Positions 43,667 through 50,610 of a DNA stretch of 64,000 nt are shown here, piece after piece. Position 1 is the first letter of the stretch. Each line of letters starts with the position of its first letter. The stretch is from Patescibacteria group bacterium (GTDB taxonomy: Bacteria > Patescibacteriota > Gracilibacteria > UBA1369 > PNNO01), in assembly GCA_042568575.1 (NCBI GenBank), contig JBHPIO010000001.1, positions 64,001-128,000 on the forward strand, in the 5' to 3' direction. A program made the translations under genes and the position numbers. Under the pieces are notes generated by a model. The model was given only the letters and a program-made list of their open reading frames with translations, had not been told where the DNA came from and ran no database searches.

Positions 43667-44215
43667 ATGAAAAAGCCAGTTACACAGAAAGGATTTACTC
43701 TCGTTGAGTTCATAATATATGTGGCAATAGCTTCTTTTGTGCTTATTTCAACCGTAAATGTAAGTTGGAACATTATGAGTGCACAGGCTAATTTCAATGC
43801 AAAACAGGAAGTCTACATCAACTCCAGACTAGCCATGAATCAAGTTGGAATAGTGATCAAGGAAGCCGAAGACGTACTTACTGCCCAATCTGTATTCGAT
43901 TCGCATCCTGGCGTGCTCACTTTAGATTATCCAGGAGTTAATGACGTTATAATTGATACTTACATCAAAAACATAAGTGTTGGAGGTCAGTCAGCCGCAA
44001 TTCGCAAACTTCAAATCAAGGGGATTGATGGAAGCTTTACGGATTTAACAACAGACAAAGTTAATGTTACTAACTTTAAATTAACAAACCTTACTCGTGG
44101 ATCAGAGAAAGACAACATAAATATGGAATTACGAATTGAAAAAATCAACCCAGGGGACGATCCAACATACGATGCTTCTATTGAGTTTGAAACGGCAATT
44201 TCTTTAAGAGAATAA
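43667..44215 (+). CDS. Minor pilin (PilW/GspJ-like)
   Basis: KG|FTLVE followed by a hydrophobic helix. Confidence 0.8.
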   Translation: MKKPVTQKGFTLVEFIIYVAIASFVLISTVNVSWNIMSAQANFNAKQEVYINSRLAMNQVGIVIKEAEDVLTAQSVFDSHPGVLTLDYPGVNDVIIDTYIKNISVGGQSAAIRKLQIKGIDGSFTDLTTDKVNVTNFKLTNLTRGSEKDNINMELRIEKINPGDDPTYDASIEFETAISLRE

Positions 44216-44217
44216 AT

Positions 44218-44622
44218 ATGAACAAAATAATGAAAACAATTAGAAAAACAAATGAAGGTGCTGCTGTGCTAATTATTGTTATTATTATGGGGTCGGCAAT
44301 GCTATTAATTGCGTTAAGTCTCGGCATATCTTCAATTTCTGAAAATCTGATAAATCTCTATCAAAGTCAATCGAGTCGGTTGTCGCTTAGCATTGATGGT
44401 TGTGCTGAAGAAGCCTTAATACGGCTTAACAGGGATAATAGCTACAACGAAGAAACTCTTTCAATTGGAGGGACTTCTTGCACAATTAGCGTATCAGGTA
44501 GTGGAAGCAGTAGGACTATTAATGTTGCAGGAACAAAAAGCGATTACAGCAGAGAGCTGGAAATCGCAGTAAATATATCACCTACATATGCCATAACTTC
44601 ATGGCAGGAACTAACCACATAA
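44218..44622 (+). CDS. Minor pilin (PilX/GspK-like)
   Basis: EG|AAVLII (no E5), DGCAEEAL.RL, ITSWQE end. Confidence 0.7.
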   Translation: MNKIMKTIRKTNEGAAVLIIVIIMGSAMLLIALSLGISSISENLINLYQSQSSRLSLSIDGCAEEALIRLNRDNSYNEETLSIGGTSCTISVSGSGSSRTINVAGTKSDYSRELEIAVNISPTYAITSWQELTT

Positions 44623-44624
44623 CT

Positions 44625-45587
44625 ATGTTCGAATTTTTTAAGAAAAGAAATCTCACTTTATATTGTACAGACACCTATGTACAAATACTCGTCCTAAAAG
44701 GCAAAAAGCGAAATATGAGAGTTGGCGCGTACGGTCAACGAAATCTATCATCAGGTATAATCAAAAACGGTGAGATTATGCAGGAAAAACAGCTAGCTAT
44801 AGAAATAATCACACTCCTTTCTGAGTTAAATATTAAAGATAAGAATTGCCTTATCGCCCTACCGAAAAATCATATTTTTGAGCATATCATTTACATGGAC
44901 TCTTCACTAAAAAAAGAGGCTTTTACAGAGAAATTAGAAGAAGAAATTAAAAAAATAATTCCAATACCTTTTCAAGAGTTAAAATATACTTATAGTGCTA
45001 CAACATACGGAAAAGCGCAGGCAGTATATGTTGTGGCCATAAAAAAAGAAATAGTTGCCAAATATTACGAAGTTTTGAAGTCCTTCTGCAATCTTAATCC
45101 TTTAGTCTTTGAATCTGAAACTTCAAGTTTAATAAGAAATGTTCCAATAGATTTGCGCGAAGATAAGGGGAAAATCCTAATTGAAGTCCTTCCAAATAAA
45201 ACTGAATGGCTCATTCTCTGGAAGGAAAATATTTTCGATAGCAATACAATATCTAAGACAGGGGATCAGGATGATATTCAAATTGTCACAAGCGACTTGT
45301 TGGAATCAATAATTAATTTTTCTAATAAAACCAAACGCAAAATAAGTGATATCTATTTAATAGGGGACAAAGAAAAAGCTGCAATTATAGGTAACTCTCT
45401 AGAACAAAGCGTGAAACTCAAACCTCAATATCTTTCTGATTTCAGAATCAACTTAAAAACTAAAAAAGAAAATTTGTCTACAAAATTTAAAGTAATTGGT
45501 GGTCTAGCACTACATGAAATGAATCAGAAAAATTCTCTTAACTTAATCCCAAAAAATCCTAAGAAGGGGGTTGCTAGAGGGGGATAA
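44625..45587 (+). CDS. pilM: PilM-like pilus assembly protein (start re-called to 44625)
   Basis: Pattern GIIKNGEI....LA..I..L, IALP, IIPIP..EL.Y.Y, V.A.KKEIV..Y, ESE..SL.R, IYLIG, GLAL. Confidence 0.65.
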   Translation: MFEFFKKRNLTLYCTDTYVQILVLKGKKRNMRVGAYGQRNLSSGIIKNGEIMQEKQLAIEIITLLSELNIKDKNCLIALPKNHIFEHIIYMDSSLKKEAFTEKLEEEIKKIIPIPFQELKYTYSATTYGKAQAVYVVAIKKEIVAKYYEVLKSFCNLNPLVFESETSSLIRNVPIDLREDKGKILIEVLPNKTEWLILWKENIFDSNTISKTGDQDDIQIVTSDLLESIINFSNKTKRKISDIYLIGDKEKAAIIGNSLEQSVKLKPQYLSDFRINLKTKKENLSTKFKVIGGLALHEMNQKNSLNLIPKNPKKGVARGG

Positions 45588-45599
45588 TTGATGTATAAT
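45571..45599 (+). promoter_or_regulatory. Promoter of the major pilin gene
   Basis: TTGCTA-17bp-TATAAT. Confidence 0.6.
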
Positions 45600-45686
45600 A
45601 ATAGTAGTTGAAGTAAATCTTCGGTTACCTCAAGTTAATTTGTTCTTTGACCTTTCGTGCCTTAAATAACCTTAATATAAACATTT

Positions 45687-46220
45687 ATGGGTAATCTATG
45701 CAAAACGCATAGGAGCACAAGGAGCACTCGGAGCAACAAGGGGTTCACCCTCATCGAATTAATCATCGTAATAGCAGTAATTGCTATTCTTGCGGGCTCG
45801 ATTTTCGTAGCCATCGACCCAGCAAGGCGTTTAAACGAATCACGTAATGCAAGACGTGCAAGCGATGTAACAACAGTTTTAGACGCTGTTATAAAATACC
45901 AGGCTGATAATGAAGGAACTCATTATTCAACCGTGGCTGCATTAACTGCTGGTAATTACTATACTATCGGTACATGCGCTACAGGTGGAAATAGTGATTG
46001 TGGAGCTCAAACTACACAGGCAGCTTGTGTAGATCTTTCAAGCATTGGGTCAAACTACCTTGCATCTATACCAATGGATCCAAAAACTGGAACTGCTGCA
46101 AAATCAGACTACTATCTGATGGTTGATTCAAATGGAGCGGTAACTGTTGGTTCATGCGACCCTGAAGGAGAAGGTTCAGGTGGAAGCGGAACTGCACCAA
46201 CAATTGAGTTAAGTCGCTAA
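45687..46220 (+). CDS. Type IV major pilin / GspG-like prepilin
   Basis: KG|FTLIELIIVIAVIAILA, DPARR...RNARR.SD, YL..IP.DP. Confidence 0.85.
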   Translation: MGNLCKTHRSTRSTRSNKGFTLIELIIVIAVIAILAGSIFVAIDPARRLNESRNARRASDVTTVLDAVIKYQADNEGTHYSTVAALTAGNYYTIGTCATGGNSDCGAQTTQAACVDLSSIGSNYLASIPMDPKTGTAAKSDYYLMVDSNGAVTVGSCDPEGEGSGGSGTAPTIELSR

Positions 46221-46239: not shown

Positions 46240-46623
46240 ATGGCAGATAAGAAACCATTAAAAGTAATGGTGGCTGAGGATGACTCGTTCCTAATGAACA
46301 TGTACTTAGCCAAATTTAAACAGGAAGGATATGAAGTCATTGCTTCGGCTGATGGAGTTGAAGCAATAACTTCCCTCAAAGCAGGAGAAAATCCTGATAT
46401 CATTCTATTAGATATAATGATGCCCAATAAAAATGGGTTTGAAGTCTTGGATTTTATAAACACAGATCCAAAATTAAAGAAAACACCTGTTATAATTCTT
46501 TCTAATCTAGGTCAAGAATCAGACATTCAACGAGGAAAAGATGCCGGTGCAGTAGATTTTATAGTGAAAGCAAATATTTCTTTAGAAGATATCGTTACTA
46601 AAATCAAGAAATATACAGCTTAA
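46240..46623 (+). CDS. Single-domain response regulator (CheY-like)
   Basis: Motifs AEDD, ILLDIMMP..NG, PVIILSN, FIVK. Confidence 0.9.
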   Translation: MADKKPLKVMVAEDDSFLMNMYLAKFKQEGYEVIASADGVEAITSLKAGENPDIILLDIMMPNKNGFEVLDFINTDPKLKKTPVIILSNLGQESDIQRGKDAGAVDFIVKANISLEDIVTKIKKYTA

Positions 46624-47500: not shown

Positions 47501-49108
47501 TTATTTCAAATCTTTAACCATGAATGTATCTCCTAATTTGAATCCACGTTTTCGATAATACTCTCGAACTCCAATTCCGCTAATCACGGCCAATTTCGAA
47601 AGTTTATATTCAGAAGTAATTTCTTCTGCACGCTCAAGTAGCCTCTTCCCGTAGCCCTGATGCTGAACCGCTAAATCATCATGTTGCGTTAATGGAATCT
47701 GAGCACCATAAGTATGCAGCTCACGAATCACAGCAGCATATTCTAAATCTTTTATAAAATGCTTCTCGCCAGAAAAAATCTGCGAAGGTATTCTTAAGCG
47801 CAAAAAAGCAATAAGCTTATTCTGTTTTATATCTTCAAAACTCAAGAAATGCTCTTTCCCCTCAGATGAATCGTAAACTCGCTCTATCAGTTTAACGTCT
47901 TTAATATCGACCTGAGTATCACGAACTTCCCTACATCGAATGCATTTGCAACTCTCCCCTTTCTCGTACATATTTGCATGAACCACTTGCCGCAAATTAG
48001 AAACTGTTGAACCACCAAGAATACTTTCGGCCGGAATATCCCTATATAAACGTGCAATTCGAACATATTCAGGAACCAATGTTTTCATTTCACTAATAAG
48101 TTCAATTAGCTCGTCGTCTGAATAAGGCTTATGTTTGCCATCCTTGAACACTTTCTCAAGCTCACTATGAGGAGTAACAACACACGGATAAATCTTAAGC
48201 CAATCAGGTTTAAAATCAGGATCTTTAAATAATTCTGCAAACATTTCGAGATCTTTTTTTGGCGTGCTTCCATAAAGATTTGGCATCATGTGGGCGTTTA
48301 TCTTGAACCCGGCATCTTTAAGAAGCTTCATTGCAGTGCGGATCTCCCCCACTCCGTGTCCCCTCTTATTTTTCTTGAGAATCTTATCATCAAGCGCTTG
48401 AATCCCTATTTCTACTTTTGTAGCCCCAAGATTTCGCATGCGCTTAACCTCATCTATATTAATCCAGTCCGGACGTGTTTCTAGAGAAAGACCAACACAT
48501 CTATGTTTTGCAGTCTCATTTATCTTCTGTGCATCCTCAAGTGAAGTTGATTTTTCGCCTTCATTAAGCGCATTATAAACTCCTCGTATAAAAGAAGTCT
48601 GATAGTTTTTTGGATAGTATGAAAAAGTTCCACCGGCAACAATAATCTCAATTTTGTCTGTTGGATGACCTGTTCTTTCAAGCCCCTGAAGACGATTTGT
48701 AACCTGACGATAACCATCAAAATCGTTGAGTATTGCTCTCATCATTGCGGGCTCATTCGAAAGGTAACTCTTTGGCATTTCCGGTTCAGAAGGGCAAAAA
48801 ATACACGTTCCCGGACAAGCATAATGCTTCGTTAAGACAGTAACATTAGCAATCCCGGATTGTGATCTAACTTTCCGCTTTATTATTAAGTCAAAAAAGA
48901 CTTTGTTTTCCTGTATATCACCATCTTTCACCAATTTCCGATAGGTCTTAATTAAAGAAACATTAGTAGGCGAACTTATACGATACTTTAGGCTATATTC
49001 GTTCTTTAACGTCTGAAGATCTTTCTGTTTAGTGATATTTTTAGAAAGCGCTTCACAGAGCAAATCTTCCAAAATTTTATTAAGCGGTTTTCGCTGCTTG
49101 CAGTCCAT
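47501..49108 (-). CDS. elp3: Elp3 tRNA uridine(34) acetyltransferase (radical SAM + GNAT; start re-called to 49108)
   Basis: Motifs RSQSGIA, CPGTCIFCP, PKSY, GGTF, LETRPD, EIGIQ, KIYP, IRELHTYG, QHQGYG..LL..AE, ISGIGVREYYRK. Confidence 0.9.
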   Translation of the reverse strand: MDCKQRKPLNKILEDLLCEALSKNITKQKDLQTLKNEYSLKYRISSPTNVSLIKTYRKLVKDGDIQENKVFFDLIIKRKVRSQSGIANVTVLTKHYACPGTCIFCPSEPEMPKSYLSNEPAMMRAILNDFDGYRQVTNRLQGLERTGHPTDKIEIIVAGGTFSYYPKNYQTSFIRGVYNALNEGEKSTSLEDAQKINETAKHRCVGLSLETRPDWINIDEVKRMRNLGATKVEIGIQALDDKILKKNKRGHGVGEIRTAMKLLKDAGFKINAHMMPNLYGSTPKKDLEMFAELFKDPDFKPDWLKIYPCVVTPHSELEKVFKDGKHKPYSDDELIELISEMKTLVPEYVRIARLYRDIPAESILGGSTVSNLRQVVHANMYEKGESCKCIRCREVRDTQVDIKDVKLIERVYDSSEGKEHFLSFEDIKQNKLIAFLRLRIPSQIFSGEKHFIKDLEYAAVIRELHTYGAQIPLTQHDDLAVQHQGYGKRLLERAEEITSEYKLSKLAVISGIGVREYYRKRGFKLGDTFMVKDLK

Positions 49109-49153
49109 ATGCCTTTCTTGTATGGTTATTATTGCGGATCCTAATTCTATCCT

Positions 49154-49828
49154 ATGAAAGAGTCGGTGGCAAAACAATTATTGCAGAAAGTTCAGGAGGA
49201 TTATGCGACTATTGCAGATGAATTTTCCCAAACAAGACAGTATGCATGGCCAGAATTTAAACATTTTAAGAAATATATTAACCCAGGTGATACAATTCTG
49301 GATCTTGGATGTGGAAATGGTCGTTTATATGAATCTTTGAAGGATTTACAAAACATAAAATATATTGGGATAGATAATAACAAAAAATTTATACAGCTTG
49401 CGCAAAAAAAGTATACAGACACAAAATTTATAGTCGGAGATGCACTAAATATCCCCCTAAAAGAGGATATCGATATCGTGCTTTCTATTGCATCTTTACA
49501 CCACATCGCCTCATCACGTTTGCGCAAAAAAAGTGTACGCGAATTATCAAGAATTACAAAGAAAAATGGATACGTCATTGTTACTGTTTGGGATCTCTTC
49601 CAAAAGCGCTACAGGAAATACATACTCCAAAGCTTGTTCAAATATTTTATTCAATTTGGGAAGTATGACTGGAATGATACGTTCATCCCATGGGGCAAGA
49701 CTGGAGTTAAAAGATACTATCATGCGTTCACAAAGCGTGAGCTAAAAAAACTCTTTGAAAAGAACGGGTTCGAGATAGTAGAATTATTTAAAACGAATAA
49801 CCTTTGCTTGGTATGCAGAAAAAAATAG
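49154..49828 (+). CDS. Class I SAM methyltransferase, Trm9/ALKBH8-like
   Basis: Motifs Y..IADEFSQTR..AWP, LDLGCGNGR, GDALNIP, SIASLHH, TVW, DTFIPW, RYYHAF...EL. Confidence 0.75.
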   Translation: MKESVAKQLLQKVQEDYATIADEFSQTRQYAWPEFKHFKKYINPGDTILDLGCGNGRLYESLKDLQNIKYIGIDNNKKFIQLAQKKYTDTKFIVGDALNIPLKEDIDIVLSIASLHHIASSRLRKKSVRELSRITKKNGYVIVTVWDLFQKRYRKYILQSLFKYFIQFGKYDWNDTFIPWGKTGVKRYYHAFTKRELKKLFEKNGFEIVELFKTNNLCLVCRKK

Positions 49829-50610
49829 ATGTACTGAACGTAAGATTCGACAATGTAACTATCGAGGAAACTCTCGATTATATTTTCGATCATATTAACA
49901 GAGGAAAAAAGGGATATCTTTGTACACCTAATCCTGAAATGCTTCTTGAAGCAGAGAGAAATCACGACTTCAAGAAAGTCTTAAATCACTCATTATTAAA
50001 TATCCCAGATGGAATAGGGATTTTATGGGCAGCAACTCATATTGCACGTAAATCATCGAAACTTAAGGCATTCTTCACCCTTCCATTAATTGCATTTATG
50101 CCAAGTATGTTTAAAAAGATCCTTAGAGAACGAGTAACAGGATCAGATTTAATGAAGAAAATCGCAAGAGAGGCGGCGAGAGCAAACAAAAGCATCTTTC
50201 TACTCGGTGCTGCCGAAGGAATCGCAGAAGAAACAGCTGAGAAATTAAAAAAAACATATACCGGATTACAAATTGCAGGAACTTATGCCGGCTCCCCTAC
50301 CCCAGATGAAGAAGAATTCATAATCAATGGCATCAACGATGCATCTCCAGACATACTTTTTGTTGCGTATGGCGCGCCAAGACAGGAAATGTGGATATCC
50401 AGGAACCTCAAATACTTAAACAGCGTAAAAATAGCAATAGGGATCGGAGGCGCTTTCGACTTTATTGCCGGAAAAAGAAAACGAGCTCCAAAGTGGATGC
50501 AAAAACTAGGACTCGAATGGCTTTTCAGACTAATTCAAGAACCGTCACGCTGGAAACGCATCTACAACGCCACAATTAAATTCCCAACAAAAGTAATTAA
50601 AAAACTTTGA
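49813..50610 (+). CDS. WecB/TagA/CpsF glycosyltransferase
   Basis: Motifs TPNPE, PDGIG, RVTGSD, FLLG, PDILFVAYGAPRQE, GGAFDF, RAPKW..LGLEWLFRL.QEP.R. Confidence 0.9.
   Translation: MQKKIDVLNVRFDNVTIEETLDYIFDHINRGKKGYLCTPNPEMLLEAERNHDFKKVLNHSLLNIPDGIGILWAATHIARKSSKLKAFFTLPLIAFMPSMFKKILRERVTGSDLMKKIAREAARANKSIFLLGAAEGIAEETAEKLKKTYTGLQIAGTYAGSPTPDEEEFIINGINDASPDILFVAYGAPRQEMWISRNLKYLNSVKIAIGIGGAFDFIAGKRKRAPKWMQKLGLEWLFRLIQEPSRWKRIYNATIKFPTKVIKKL

Follow-up and report, generated by a model that had tools for sequence, protein, structure and literature searches.

A head-to-head elp3-methyltransferase gene pair and a probable Elp3/Trm9-like route to mcm5U34 in Patescibacteria

The window analysed here, i.e., the whole stretch of 64,000 nucleotides at positions 64,001 to 128,000 of the forward strand of contig JBHPIO010000001.1 (GenBank assembly GCA_042568575.1), contains a divergent gene pair encoding a stand-alone Elp3 and a class I S-adenosylmethionine (SAM)-dependent methyltransferase that resembles Trm9. 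The source genome, from an ultra-small uncultured bacterium, amounts to 1.2 Mb in 31 contigs, with a marker-gene completeness of 81.8%. An earlier reading made from the letters alone (hereafter the sequence-only reading) had described the two genes as head to head with their starts 45 bp apart. Direct reading of the sequence bears this out: the ATG of Elp3 (CAT at 49106-49108) and that of the methyltransferase (49154) are separated by precisely this distance (Table 1). In the list of open reading frames the Elp3 frame extends over 47501-49177 on the minus strand, with a TTG start, and the ATG at 49108 leads to a protein of 535 residues. This ATG is likely the start of Elp3, since tblastn alignments to the relatives L010, L011, L014 and L018 begin at residue 1 of the 535-residue form; the match to the model TIGR01211 begins at residue 19. 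Given the length of the two open frames and the strength of their family matches, the pair is not due to chance. The best promoter-like site for Elp3 is found on the minus strand from 49172 to 49144 (TTGCCA, 17 nt, TAGAAT; 10 matches out of 12), overlapping the first codons of the methyltransferase. Such sites are rarer here than in shuffled sequence (5 vs. a mean of 9.7); the site is thus taken as a mere consensus match and no promoter is claimed.

Table 1. Features of the elp3-methyltransferase locus (positions in the window).
Feature	Position	Strand	Basis
elp3: stand-alone Elp3, 535 aa, radical SAM and lysine acetyltransferase (KAT)/GNAT domains	47501..49108	-	TIGR01211, PDB, Pfam
Elp3 KAT-domain motif QHQGYG, residues 482-487	47648..47665	-	translation; inside weak GNAT matches 478-524
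Elp3 three-cysteine motif CKCIRC, residues 387-392, inter-domain linker	47933..47950	-	translation
Elp3 radical SAM cysteine motif CPGTCIFC, residues 98-105	48794..48817	-	translation; inside Pfam Radical_SAM match
Divergent intergenic spacer between both start codons, 45 bp	49109..49153	.	read directly
Trm9-like class I SAM-dependent methyltransferase, 224 aa, predicted carboxyl methyltransferase of 5-carboxymethyluridine (cm5U) at position 34	49154..49828	+	PDB, Pfam, AlphaFold
Span of the eight Trm9 functional residues; also D50 of motif I (DLGCGNG) and H116	49235..49801	+	HMMER alignment to 5cm2_Z
WecG/TagA-family glycosyltransferase	49804..50610	+	PF03808, E 1.2e-60

Elp3 matches the NCBIfam model TIGR01211 with 584.4 bits for a cut-off of 350 (model positions 5-522 of 522) and, in a sequence search of the PDB, its alignment with solved structures of Elp3 runs from one end to the other. 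The best of these is the enzyme of Methanocaldococcus infernus (6ia8_A, 438.9 bits, E 2e-130, residues 21-534), followed by Dehalococcoides mccartyi Elp3 (5l7j_A, 387.3 bits, from residue 77 only) and yeast Elp3 (346.5 bits). The Pfam families Radical_SAM (residues 97-284) and Radical_SAM_C are matched over their cut-offs; the GNAT matches (residues 478-524) are weak and below cut-off. The motif QHQGYG is of the Q/RxxGxG/A pattern, which we take to be the acetyl-CoA site of GNAT proteins. The three cysteines of CKCIRC would be the Zn-binding cysteines of the central linker, which are described as conserved in bacterial and archaeal Elp3 (PMC6367351). Judged from its translation, the protein is an intact, stand-alone Elp3 of archaeal type which keeps the N-terminal extension.

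The Elp3 genes of seven other genomes (G147:C4, G035:C34, G060:C9, G275:C27, G217:C9, G185:C2 and G199:C1) each give two separate matches to the model inside a single frame of 564-742 aa. This suggests insertions within Elp3, possibly inteins or extra domains.

The translation of the methyltransferase contains DYATIADEFSQTRQYAWP, DLGCGNG, DALNIP, SIASLHH, W146, DTFIPW and RYYHAFTKREL, i.e., all the Trm9-type motifs that the sequence-only reading had named. With the single sequence as query, the best PDB match is 5cm2_Z, the Trm9 of Yarrowia lipolytica (E 1.5e-13, residues 26-220); in the structure comparisons its identity to this chain is only 23-26%. This alignment spans the C-terminal W..Q / D..PW / RYYH region, where generic methyltransferases do not align. 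A profile built on 26 homologues of the methyltransferase (profile A1) gives 87.2 bits and E 1.1e-23 for 5cm2_Z, the next chain reaching 60.7 bits (E 1.4e-15), and generic PDB methyltransferases match it only at the SAM-binding core (residues 35-149).

The residues that matter for Trm9 function are also present. Alanine mutants of Saccharomyces cerevisiae Trm9 (ScTrm9) at R29, D72, H116, W145, W168, R241, Y243 and N271 are described as zymocin-resistant, the enzyme being inactive or strongly impaired (PMC4678810, Létoquart et al. 2015). In the HMMER alignment to 5cm2_Z (chain index +24 for S. cerevisiae numbering) they correspond here to R28, D74, H117, W146, W180, R187, Y189 and N216, respectively, i.e., 8 out of 8 are found. 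Seven of the eight are invariant in profile A1 and N216 is present in at least 90% of it. Among 269 homologues each of the eight is kept in 227-268 sequences, and all of them are identical together in 188 of the 260 homologues that cover the eight columns. The Trm9 likeness put forward by the sequence-only reading is borne out by both the top sequence match and these required residues, and the protein can be designated Trm9-like by sequence and specific residues, not by fold.

With regard to the relatives of the methyltransferase, the names given by JGI to its homologues are TRM9 or ALKBH8 for some and UbiE for others. The search for longer proteins gave only three fusions between the methyltransferase and WecG, and no ALKBH8-like or Elp3-fused form. 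An Atlas search points to look-alike clusters in other CPR (Candidate Phyla Radiation) phyla, Asgard archaea, Thermoplasmatota, giant viruses and Chloroflexota; the clusters count as leads only.

The pairing of Elp3 with the methyltransferase is conserved. A set of 80 loci was collected from species-representative genomes, picked by the methyltransferase profile alone, with 37-58% identity. All their record titles name uncultured bacteria, for the most part Peregrinibacteria, Peribacteria, Gracilibacteria and other Patescibacteria, and in a few cases Saccharibacteria or Gammaproteobacteria. Elp3 is found at most 4 kb from the methyltransferase in 67 of the 80 loci, i.e., 67 of the 75 with enough flank, the flank of the other five being too short to judge. 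It is divergent and within 400 bp in 56 loci, divergent and 432-2019 bp away in 10, and co-directional in a single one (L028). For a view of the whole group, 301 genomes were evenly drawn from the phylum of the window. Elp3 exceeds the cut-off in 118 genomes and the methyltransferase profile is matched at E<=1e-20 in 96; both are present in 91, Elp3 only in 27, the methyltransferase only in five, and neither in 178. Two of the five genomes with the methyltransferase only are particular cases: G276 has an adjacent Elp3 fragment at a contig end and the match in G024 is partial, restricted to the core. In several genomes (e.g., G108, G199, G214 and G044) both genes are present yet unlinked. The expected co-occurrence with elp3 is thus found (91 of 96 genomes with the methyltransferase), together with adjacency in most of the 80 loci.

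The methyltransferase probably works without Trm112. No Trm112 (PF03966) was detected in the source genome (best E 0.08), an absence that is not proof at 81.8% completeness. In the phylum sample a Trm112p match at E<=1e-3 is found in 19 of the 301 genomes. Of the 96 genomes that carry the methyltransferase, 89 have no such match and seven do, four of these over the cut-off. All the Trm112p matches sit inside frames of at least 201 aa, not in small Trm112-like proteins. The surface of the methyltransferase points in the same direction. In Y. lipolytica Trm9 the hydrophobic core buried by Trm112 is reported to consist of V59, F78, V102, A110, P112 and F116 (PMC4678810), the equivalents here being T47, K69, I93, P101, K103 and I106, respectively. 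Among the 269 homologues the V59 position is mostly Lys, Thr, Arg or Ser and the F78 position mostly Lys, Asp, Asn or Glu; at the V102 and P112 positions the residue varies, and at the A110 and F116 positions it stays mostly proline or hydrophobic. Polar or charged residues at the positions of V59 and F78 fit a solvent-exposed surface. The methyltransferase is not classified here as a Trm9-Trm112 holoenzyme because there is no Trm112 match and the hydrophobic patch is partly lost. The suggestion of the sequence-only reading that the system is perhaps Trm112-independent is consequently supported, notably by the lack of a Trm112 match in the source genome.

Concerning the usual bacterial enzymes acting on C5 of the wobble uridine (U34), MnmG has no match in the source genome, the same limit of completeness applying to this absence, which is not proof. 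For MnmE only the GTPase part is matched (model positions 177-335), below cut-off, in a 446-aa frame with two such domains; from these matches the genome appears to have no real MnmE. MnmG is found in 11 of the 301 genomes, in every case without Elp3 and without the methyltransferase, and 172 of the 301 have neither Elp3 nor MnmG. The thiolase MnmA is present in the source genome (359.7 bits vs. a cut-off of 237) and exceeds the cut-off in 257 of the 301 genomes, so many of the genomes without Elp3 and MnmG may provide for thiolation of U34 while lacking all known enzymes of the C5 side chain. The idea that the pair replaces MnmEG is borne out in part only: neither MnmG nor a real MnmE was found in the source genome, and on the scale of the phylum MnmG is rare and most genomes have neither system. 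ARAGORN found 24 tRNA genes in the source assembly, with Glu UUC, Gln UUG, Arg UCU, Gly UCC and Leu UAA as tRNAs with U34. tRNA-Lys(UUU) is not among these 24, only Lys(CUU) being found, and several other isoacceptors are missing too. The missing tRNAs are probably due to the incompleteness of the assembly.

The whole of these results leads to the proposal of a bacterial, Trm112-free route from Elp3 to a Trm9-like enzyme, the product being 5-methoxycarbonylmethyluridine (mcm5U), or its 2-thio derivative mcm5s2U with MnmA. We give this reading a probability of about 0.8. The route would consist of three steps: (i) the stand-alone Elp3, with SAM, an Fe-S cluster and acetyl-CoA, would add a carboxymethyl group at C5 of U34, leading to cm5U, a chemistry that is established for archaeal Elp3; (ii) the Trm9-like methyltransferase, probably as a single polypeptide without Trm112, would methyl-esterify the carboxylate with SAM, leading to mcm5U; (iii) MnmA would add the s2 group on tRNAs of the Glu/Gln/Lys type, such as tRNA-Glu(UUC) and tRNA-Gln(UUG), leading to mcm5s2U. 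The Elp3 route would be the only path to the side chain of U34 (xm5U34) in the source genome because MnmG and a real MnmE are not found there.

Several points weigh against this proposal. Elp3 is absent from 8 of the 80 loci despite an upstream flank of at least 1.7 kb, and 27 of the 118 genomes with Elp3 have no methyltransferase. Related genomes are not independent, and the co-occurrence statistics therefore overstate the case; no weight is given to the Fisher p-value. The absences of Trm112 and MnmG are subject to the limit given above. The matches of the methyltransferase over Pfam cut-offs (Methyltransf_11, 25 and 31) are to generic families only; its NCBIfam matches are all generic as well and none exceeds an equivalog cut-off. 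Among the eight residues, Y189 shows the lowest conservation (kept in 227 of 269 homologues). Near-length, longer-protein and profile searches gave relatives from uncultured bacteria only and no named eukaryotic or archaeal Trm9; the exhaustive profile search led to 968 clusters at E<=1e-30, with names taken from the best 150 of the 968. Lastly, the fold is of little help. The AlphaFold model is confident, with a predicted local distance difference test (pLDDT) score of 93.9. Foldseek ranks 5cm2_Z first, by a narrow, non-discriminating margin (2.2e-14 vs. 1.9e-13), and VIA-align places it 15th (Z 19.2, root mean square deviation 2.1, 168 aligned residues), after METTL6 (Z 21.2) and further enzymes of class I, many class I methyltransferases being within about 2 Z of it. 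The model thus does not separate the protein from other class I methyltransferases.

Three other explanations were weighed against the Elp3/Trm9-like route. The methyltransferase might act on tRNA after Elp3 with a different product or partner, i.e., the ester would be processed further, only a subset of U34 tRNAs would be used, or an unrecognised substitute of Trm112 would take part. Such a variant is in line with the accumulation of 5-carbamoylmethyluridine (ncm5U) reported for yeast trm9 mutants, which hints at an extra step of the pathway (PMC3110198), with the lack of cm5U reported for Haloferax trm9 mutants (PMC6144793), and with the presence in some Elp3-only relatives of an AsnB-like amidating enzyme, according to which the chemistry after Elp3 varies in the phylum. 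It is nevertheless unlikely: all eight Trm9 residues tied to the methylation of cm5U are conserved, and no further neighbour is conserved with the pair across the 80 loci, WecG being found in close relatives only. It is very unlikely that the protein is a generic class I enzyme acting on another substrate (a small molecule, a quinone-type compound or another RNA), so that its adjacency to Elp3 would be meaningless. UbiE/MenG-like and DVU_1556-like matches, all below cut-offs, the otherwise generic Pfam and NCBIfam matches, the tie with many small-molecule methyltransferases in the fold search and the name UbiE given to some homologues by their source go in that direction. They have to be set against an Elp3 neighbour that is retained by 67 of the 75 loci whose flank is long enough, in spite of 37-58% identity, the presence of Elp3 in nearly all the genomes with the methyltransferase, the Trm9-specific residues conserved beyond the SAM-binding core, and the generic PDB methyltransferases that align to residues 35-149 only.

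The downstream gene could also be the true partner, the methyltransferase acting with the WecG/TagA glycosyltransferase in the synthesis of an envelope glycopolymer, e.g., by placing a methyl group on a sugar or on a lipid-linked intermediate. The genes of the methyltransferase and WecG overlap by 16-25 nt, WecG comes directly downstream in 40 of the 76 sufficiently flanked loci, each of the 40 being among the closer relatives, and fused forms exist: P0121-P0123 (469-520 aa, co-linear in P0122) as well as open frames in G199 and G127 (495 and 518 aa). Against this, the 36 loci with adequate flank and no WecG are mostly distant relatives (L038-L087), and 31 of these 36 keep Elp3 within 4 kb; moreover, the conserved residues of the methyltransferase are those of the tRNA cm5U enzyme. 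A role in envelope synthesis is thus highly improbable, and WecG is probably a lineage-specific neighbour that is not part of the tRNA system.

The neighbours of Elp3 were inspected in seven genomes with Elp3 and without the methyltransferase. In G264 a 271-aa stand-alone synthetase domain of AsnB type (L094:6719-7534, +) is divergent from Elp3 (L094:5007-6686, -) at a distance of 32 bp. Its Pfam match is Asn_synthase (1.2e-29), its best PDB match covers residues 209-452 of AsnB, and it has no glutaminase domain. The gene occupies the exact position of the methyltransferase in G066, a genome of the same family. When the 301 genomes were searched for this AsnB-like protein, seven matched. Five of them, spread over three families, have Elp3 and no methyltransferase (G264, G235, G133, G013 and G185), and there the gene for this stand-alone domain of roughly 270 aa is within about 700 bp of Elp3 (for the latter four, G235:C112:1115-1918, G133:C17:58833-59264, G013:C11:14531-15283 and G185:C2:232893-233591); the remaining two matches are to long AsnB-like frames located in other parts of the genome. 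The AsnB-like protein is a candidate for the amidation of cm5U to ncm5U, a step whose enzyme is called unknown in the text of PMC6367351. It is conceivable, though doubtful, that in many Patescibacteria (CPR) Elp3 is the sole route to the C5 side chain and is followed by an interchangeable second enzyme, i.e., mostly a Trm112-independent Trm9 leading to mcm5(s2)U and elsewhere an AsnB-type enzyme leading to ncm5U. If this were true, it would provide both a self-sufficient Trm9 and a candidate for the missing ncm5U enzyme, and it would raise anew the question of whether, in bacteria, the Elp3 route predates MnmEG or was acquired from archaea.

Upstream of the pair, proteins with prepilin-like N-termini (GFTLVEFII and GFTLIELII in the translations) are encoded at 43667-46220 of the window, and a 127-aa protein encoded at 46240-46623 resembles, by eye, a response-regulator receiver domain.

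The comparison with known systems situates the pair between those of eukaryotes, archaea and bacteria. Elp3 followed by Trm9-Trm112 is the eukaryotic route to mcm5U. The methyltransferase studied here is a class I SAM-dependent enzyme, like Trm9 in the Trm9-Trm112 of yeasts (S. cerevisiae; 5cm2 of Y. lipolytica) and like the human ALKBH8 methyltransferase domain: it has its best solved sequence match in 5cm2, keeps the eight residues and would likewise follow Elp3 in the logic of the pathway. It differs from yeast Trm9-Trm112 in that no Trm112 was found, in its polar or charged residues at the V59 and F78 contact positions and in its bacterial host, and from human ALKBH8 in that it has no RRM or AlkB domain. 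Elp3 itself is closest, among solved structures, to the archaeal stand-alone enzyme of M. infernus (6ia8), like which it would act without Elp1, 2 and 4-6 and whose N-terminal extension it keeps.

The archaeal or eukaryotic thiolation enzyme is of Ncs6 type, whereas thiolation would here be performed by the bacterial MnmA. The clustering of the Elp3 and Trm9 genes is shared with Sulfolobus (PMC6144793). According to the same source, Haloferax makes mcm5U with Trm9-Trm112 and needs Trm112 in vivo; the system described here differs from that of Haloferax volcanii in that no Trm112 was found. The PDB entry 6f5z was considered as Haloferax Trm9-Trm112 and dropped, since its title is that of the Hvo_0019 methyltransferase with Trm112. 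In view of Haloferax and Sulfolobus, the expression «eukaryote-type» used in the sequence-only reading is correct as regards eukaryotes and too narrow as regards archaea; «archaeal/eukaryotic-type» is more accurate.

On the bacterial side, the characterised Elp3 of D. mccartyi has the same stand-alone form and the same domain order; it has no N-terminal extension (PMC6367351), in contrast with the present Elp3, whose alignment to it starts at residue 77 only. In a 2020 review (PMC7663514), bacterial Elp3 is described as confined to one clade (Dehalococcoides), with no evidence for xcm5U derivatives; a 2026 paper mentions Elp3 in «numerous bacteria» (PMC13315578). With respect to the picture given by the review, Elp3 is found here in 118 of 301 genomes of another phylum, together with a Trm9-like partner. 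MnmE/MnmG, which leads to 5-carboxymethylaminomethyluridine (cmnm5U) and 5-methylaminomethyluridine (mnm5U), has the same target, i.e., C5 of U34, and is combined in the same way with thiolation by MnmA; the enzymes and the chemistry are unrelated, and MnmG never occurs alongside Elp3 in the 301 genomes. In the literature outside subscription journals, no description was found of a bacterial Trm9 or of an Elp3-Trm9 pair in Patescibacteria.

mcm5U and mcm5s2U count as wobble modifications of archaea and eukaryotes, MnmEG being the textbook route of bacteria. If the route proposed here is true, a whole bacterial radiation would use Elp3 and Trm9 together with the bacterial MnmA, and the textbook distribution of these modifications would change. 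A soluble Trm9 active without Trm112 would also be useful for studying the structure and mechanism of an enzyme family associated with human disease. The 172 genomes out of 301 without Elp3 and MnmG raise a further question, i.e., how those bacteria decode split codon boxes.

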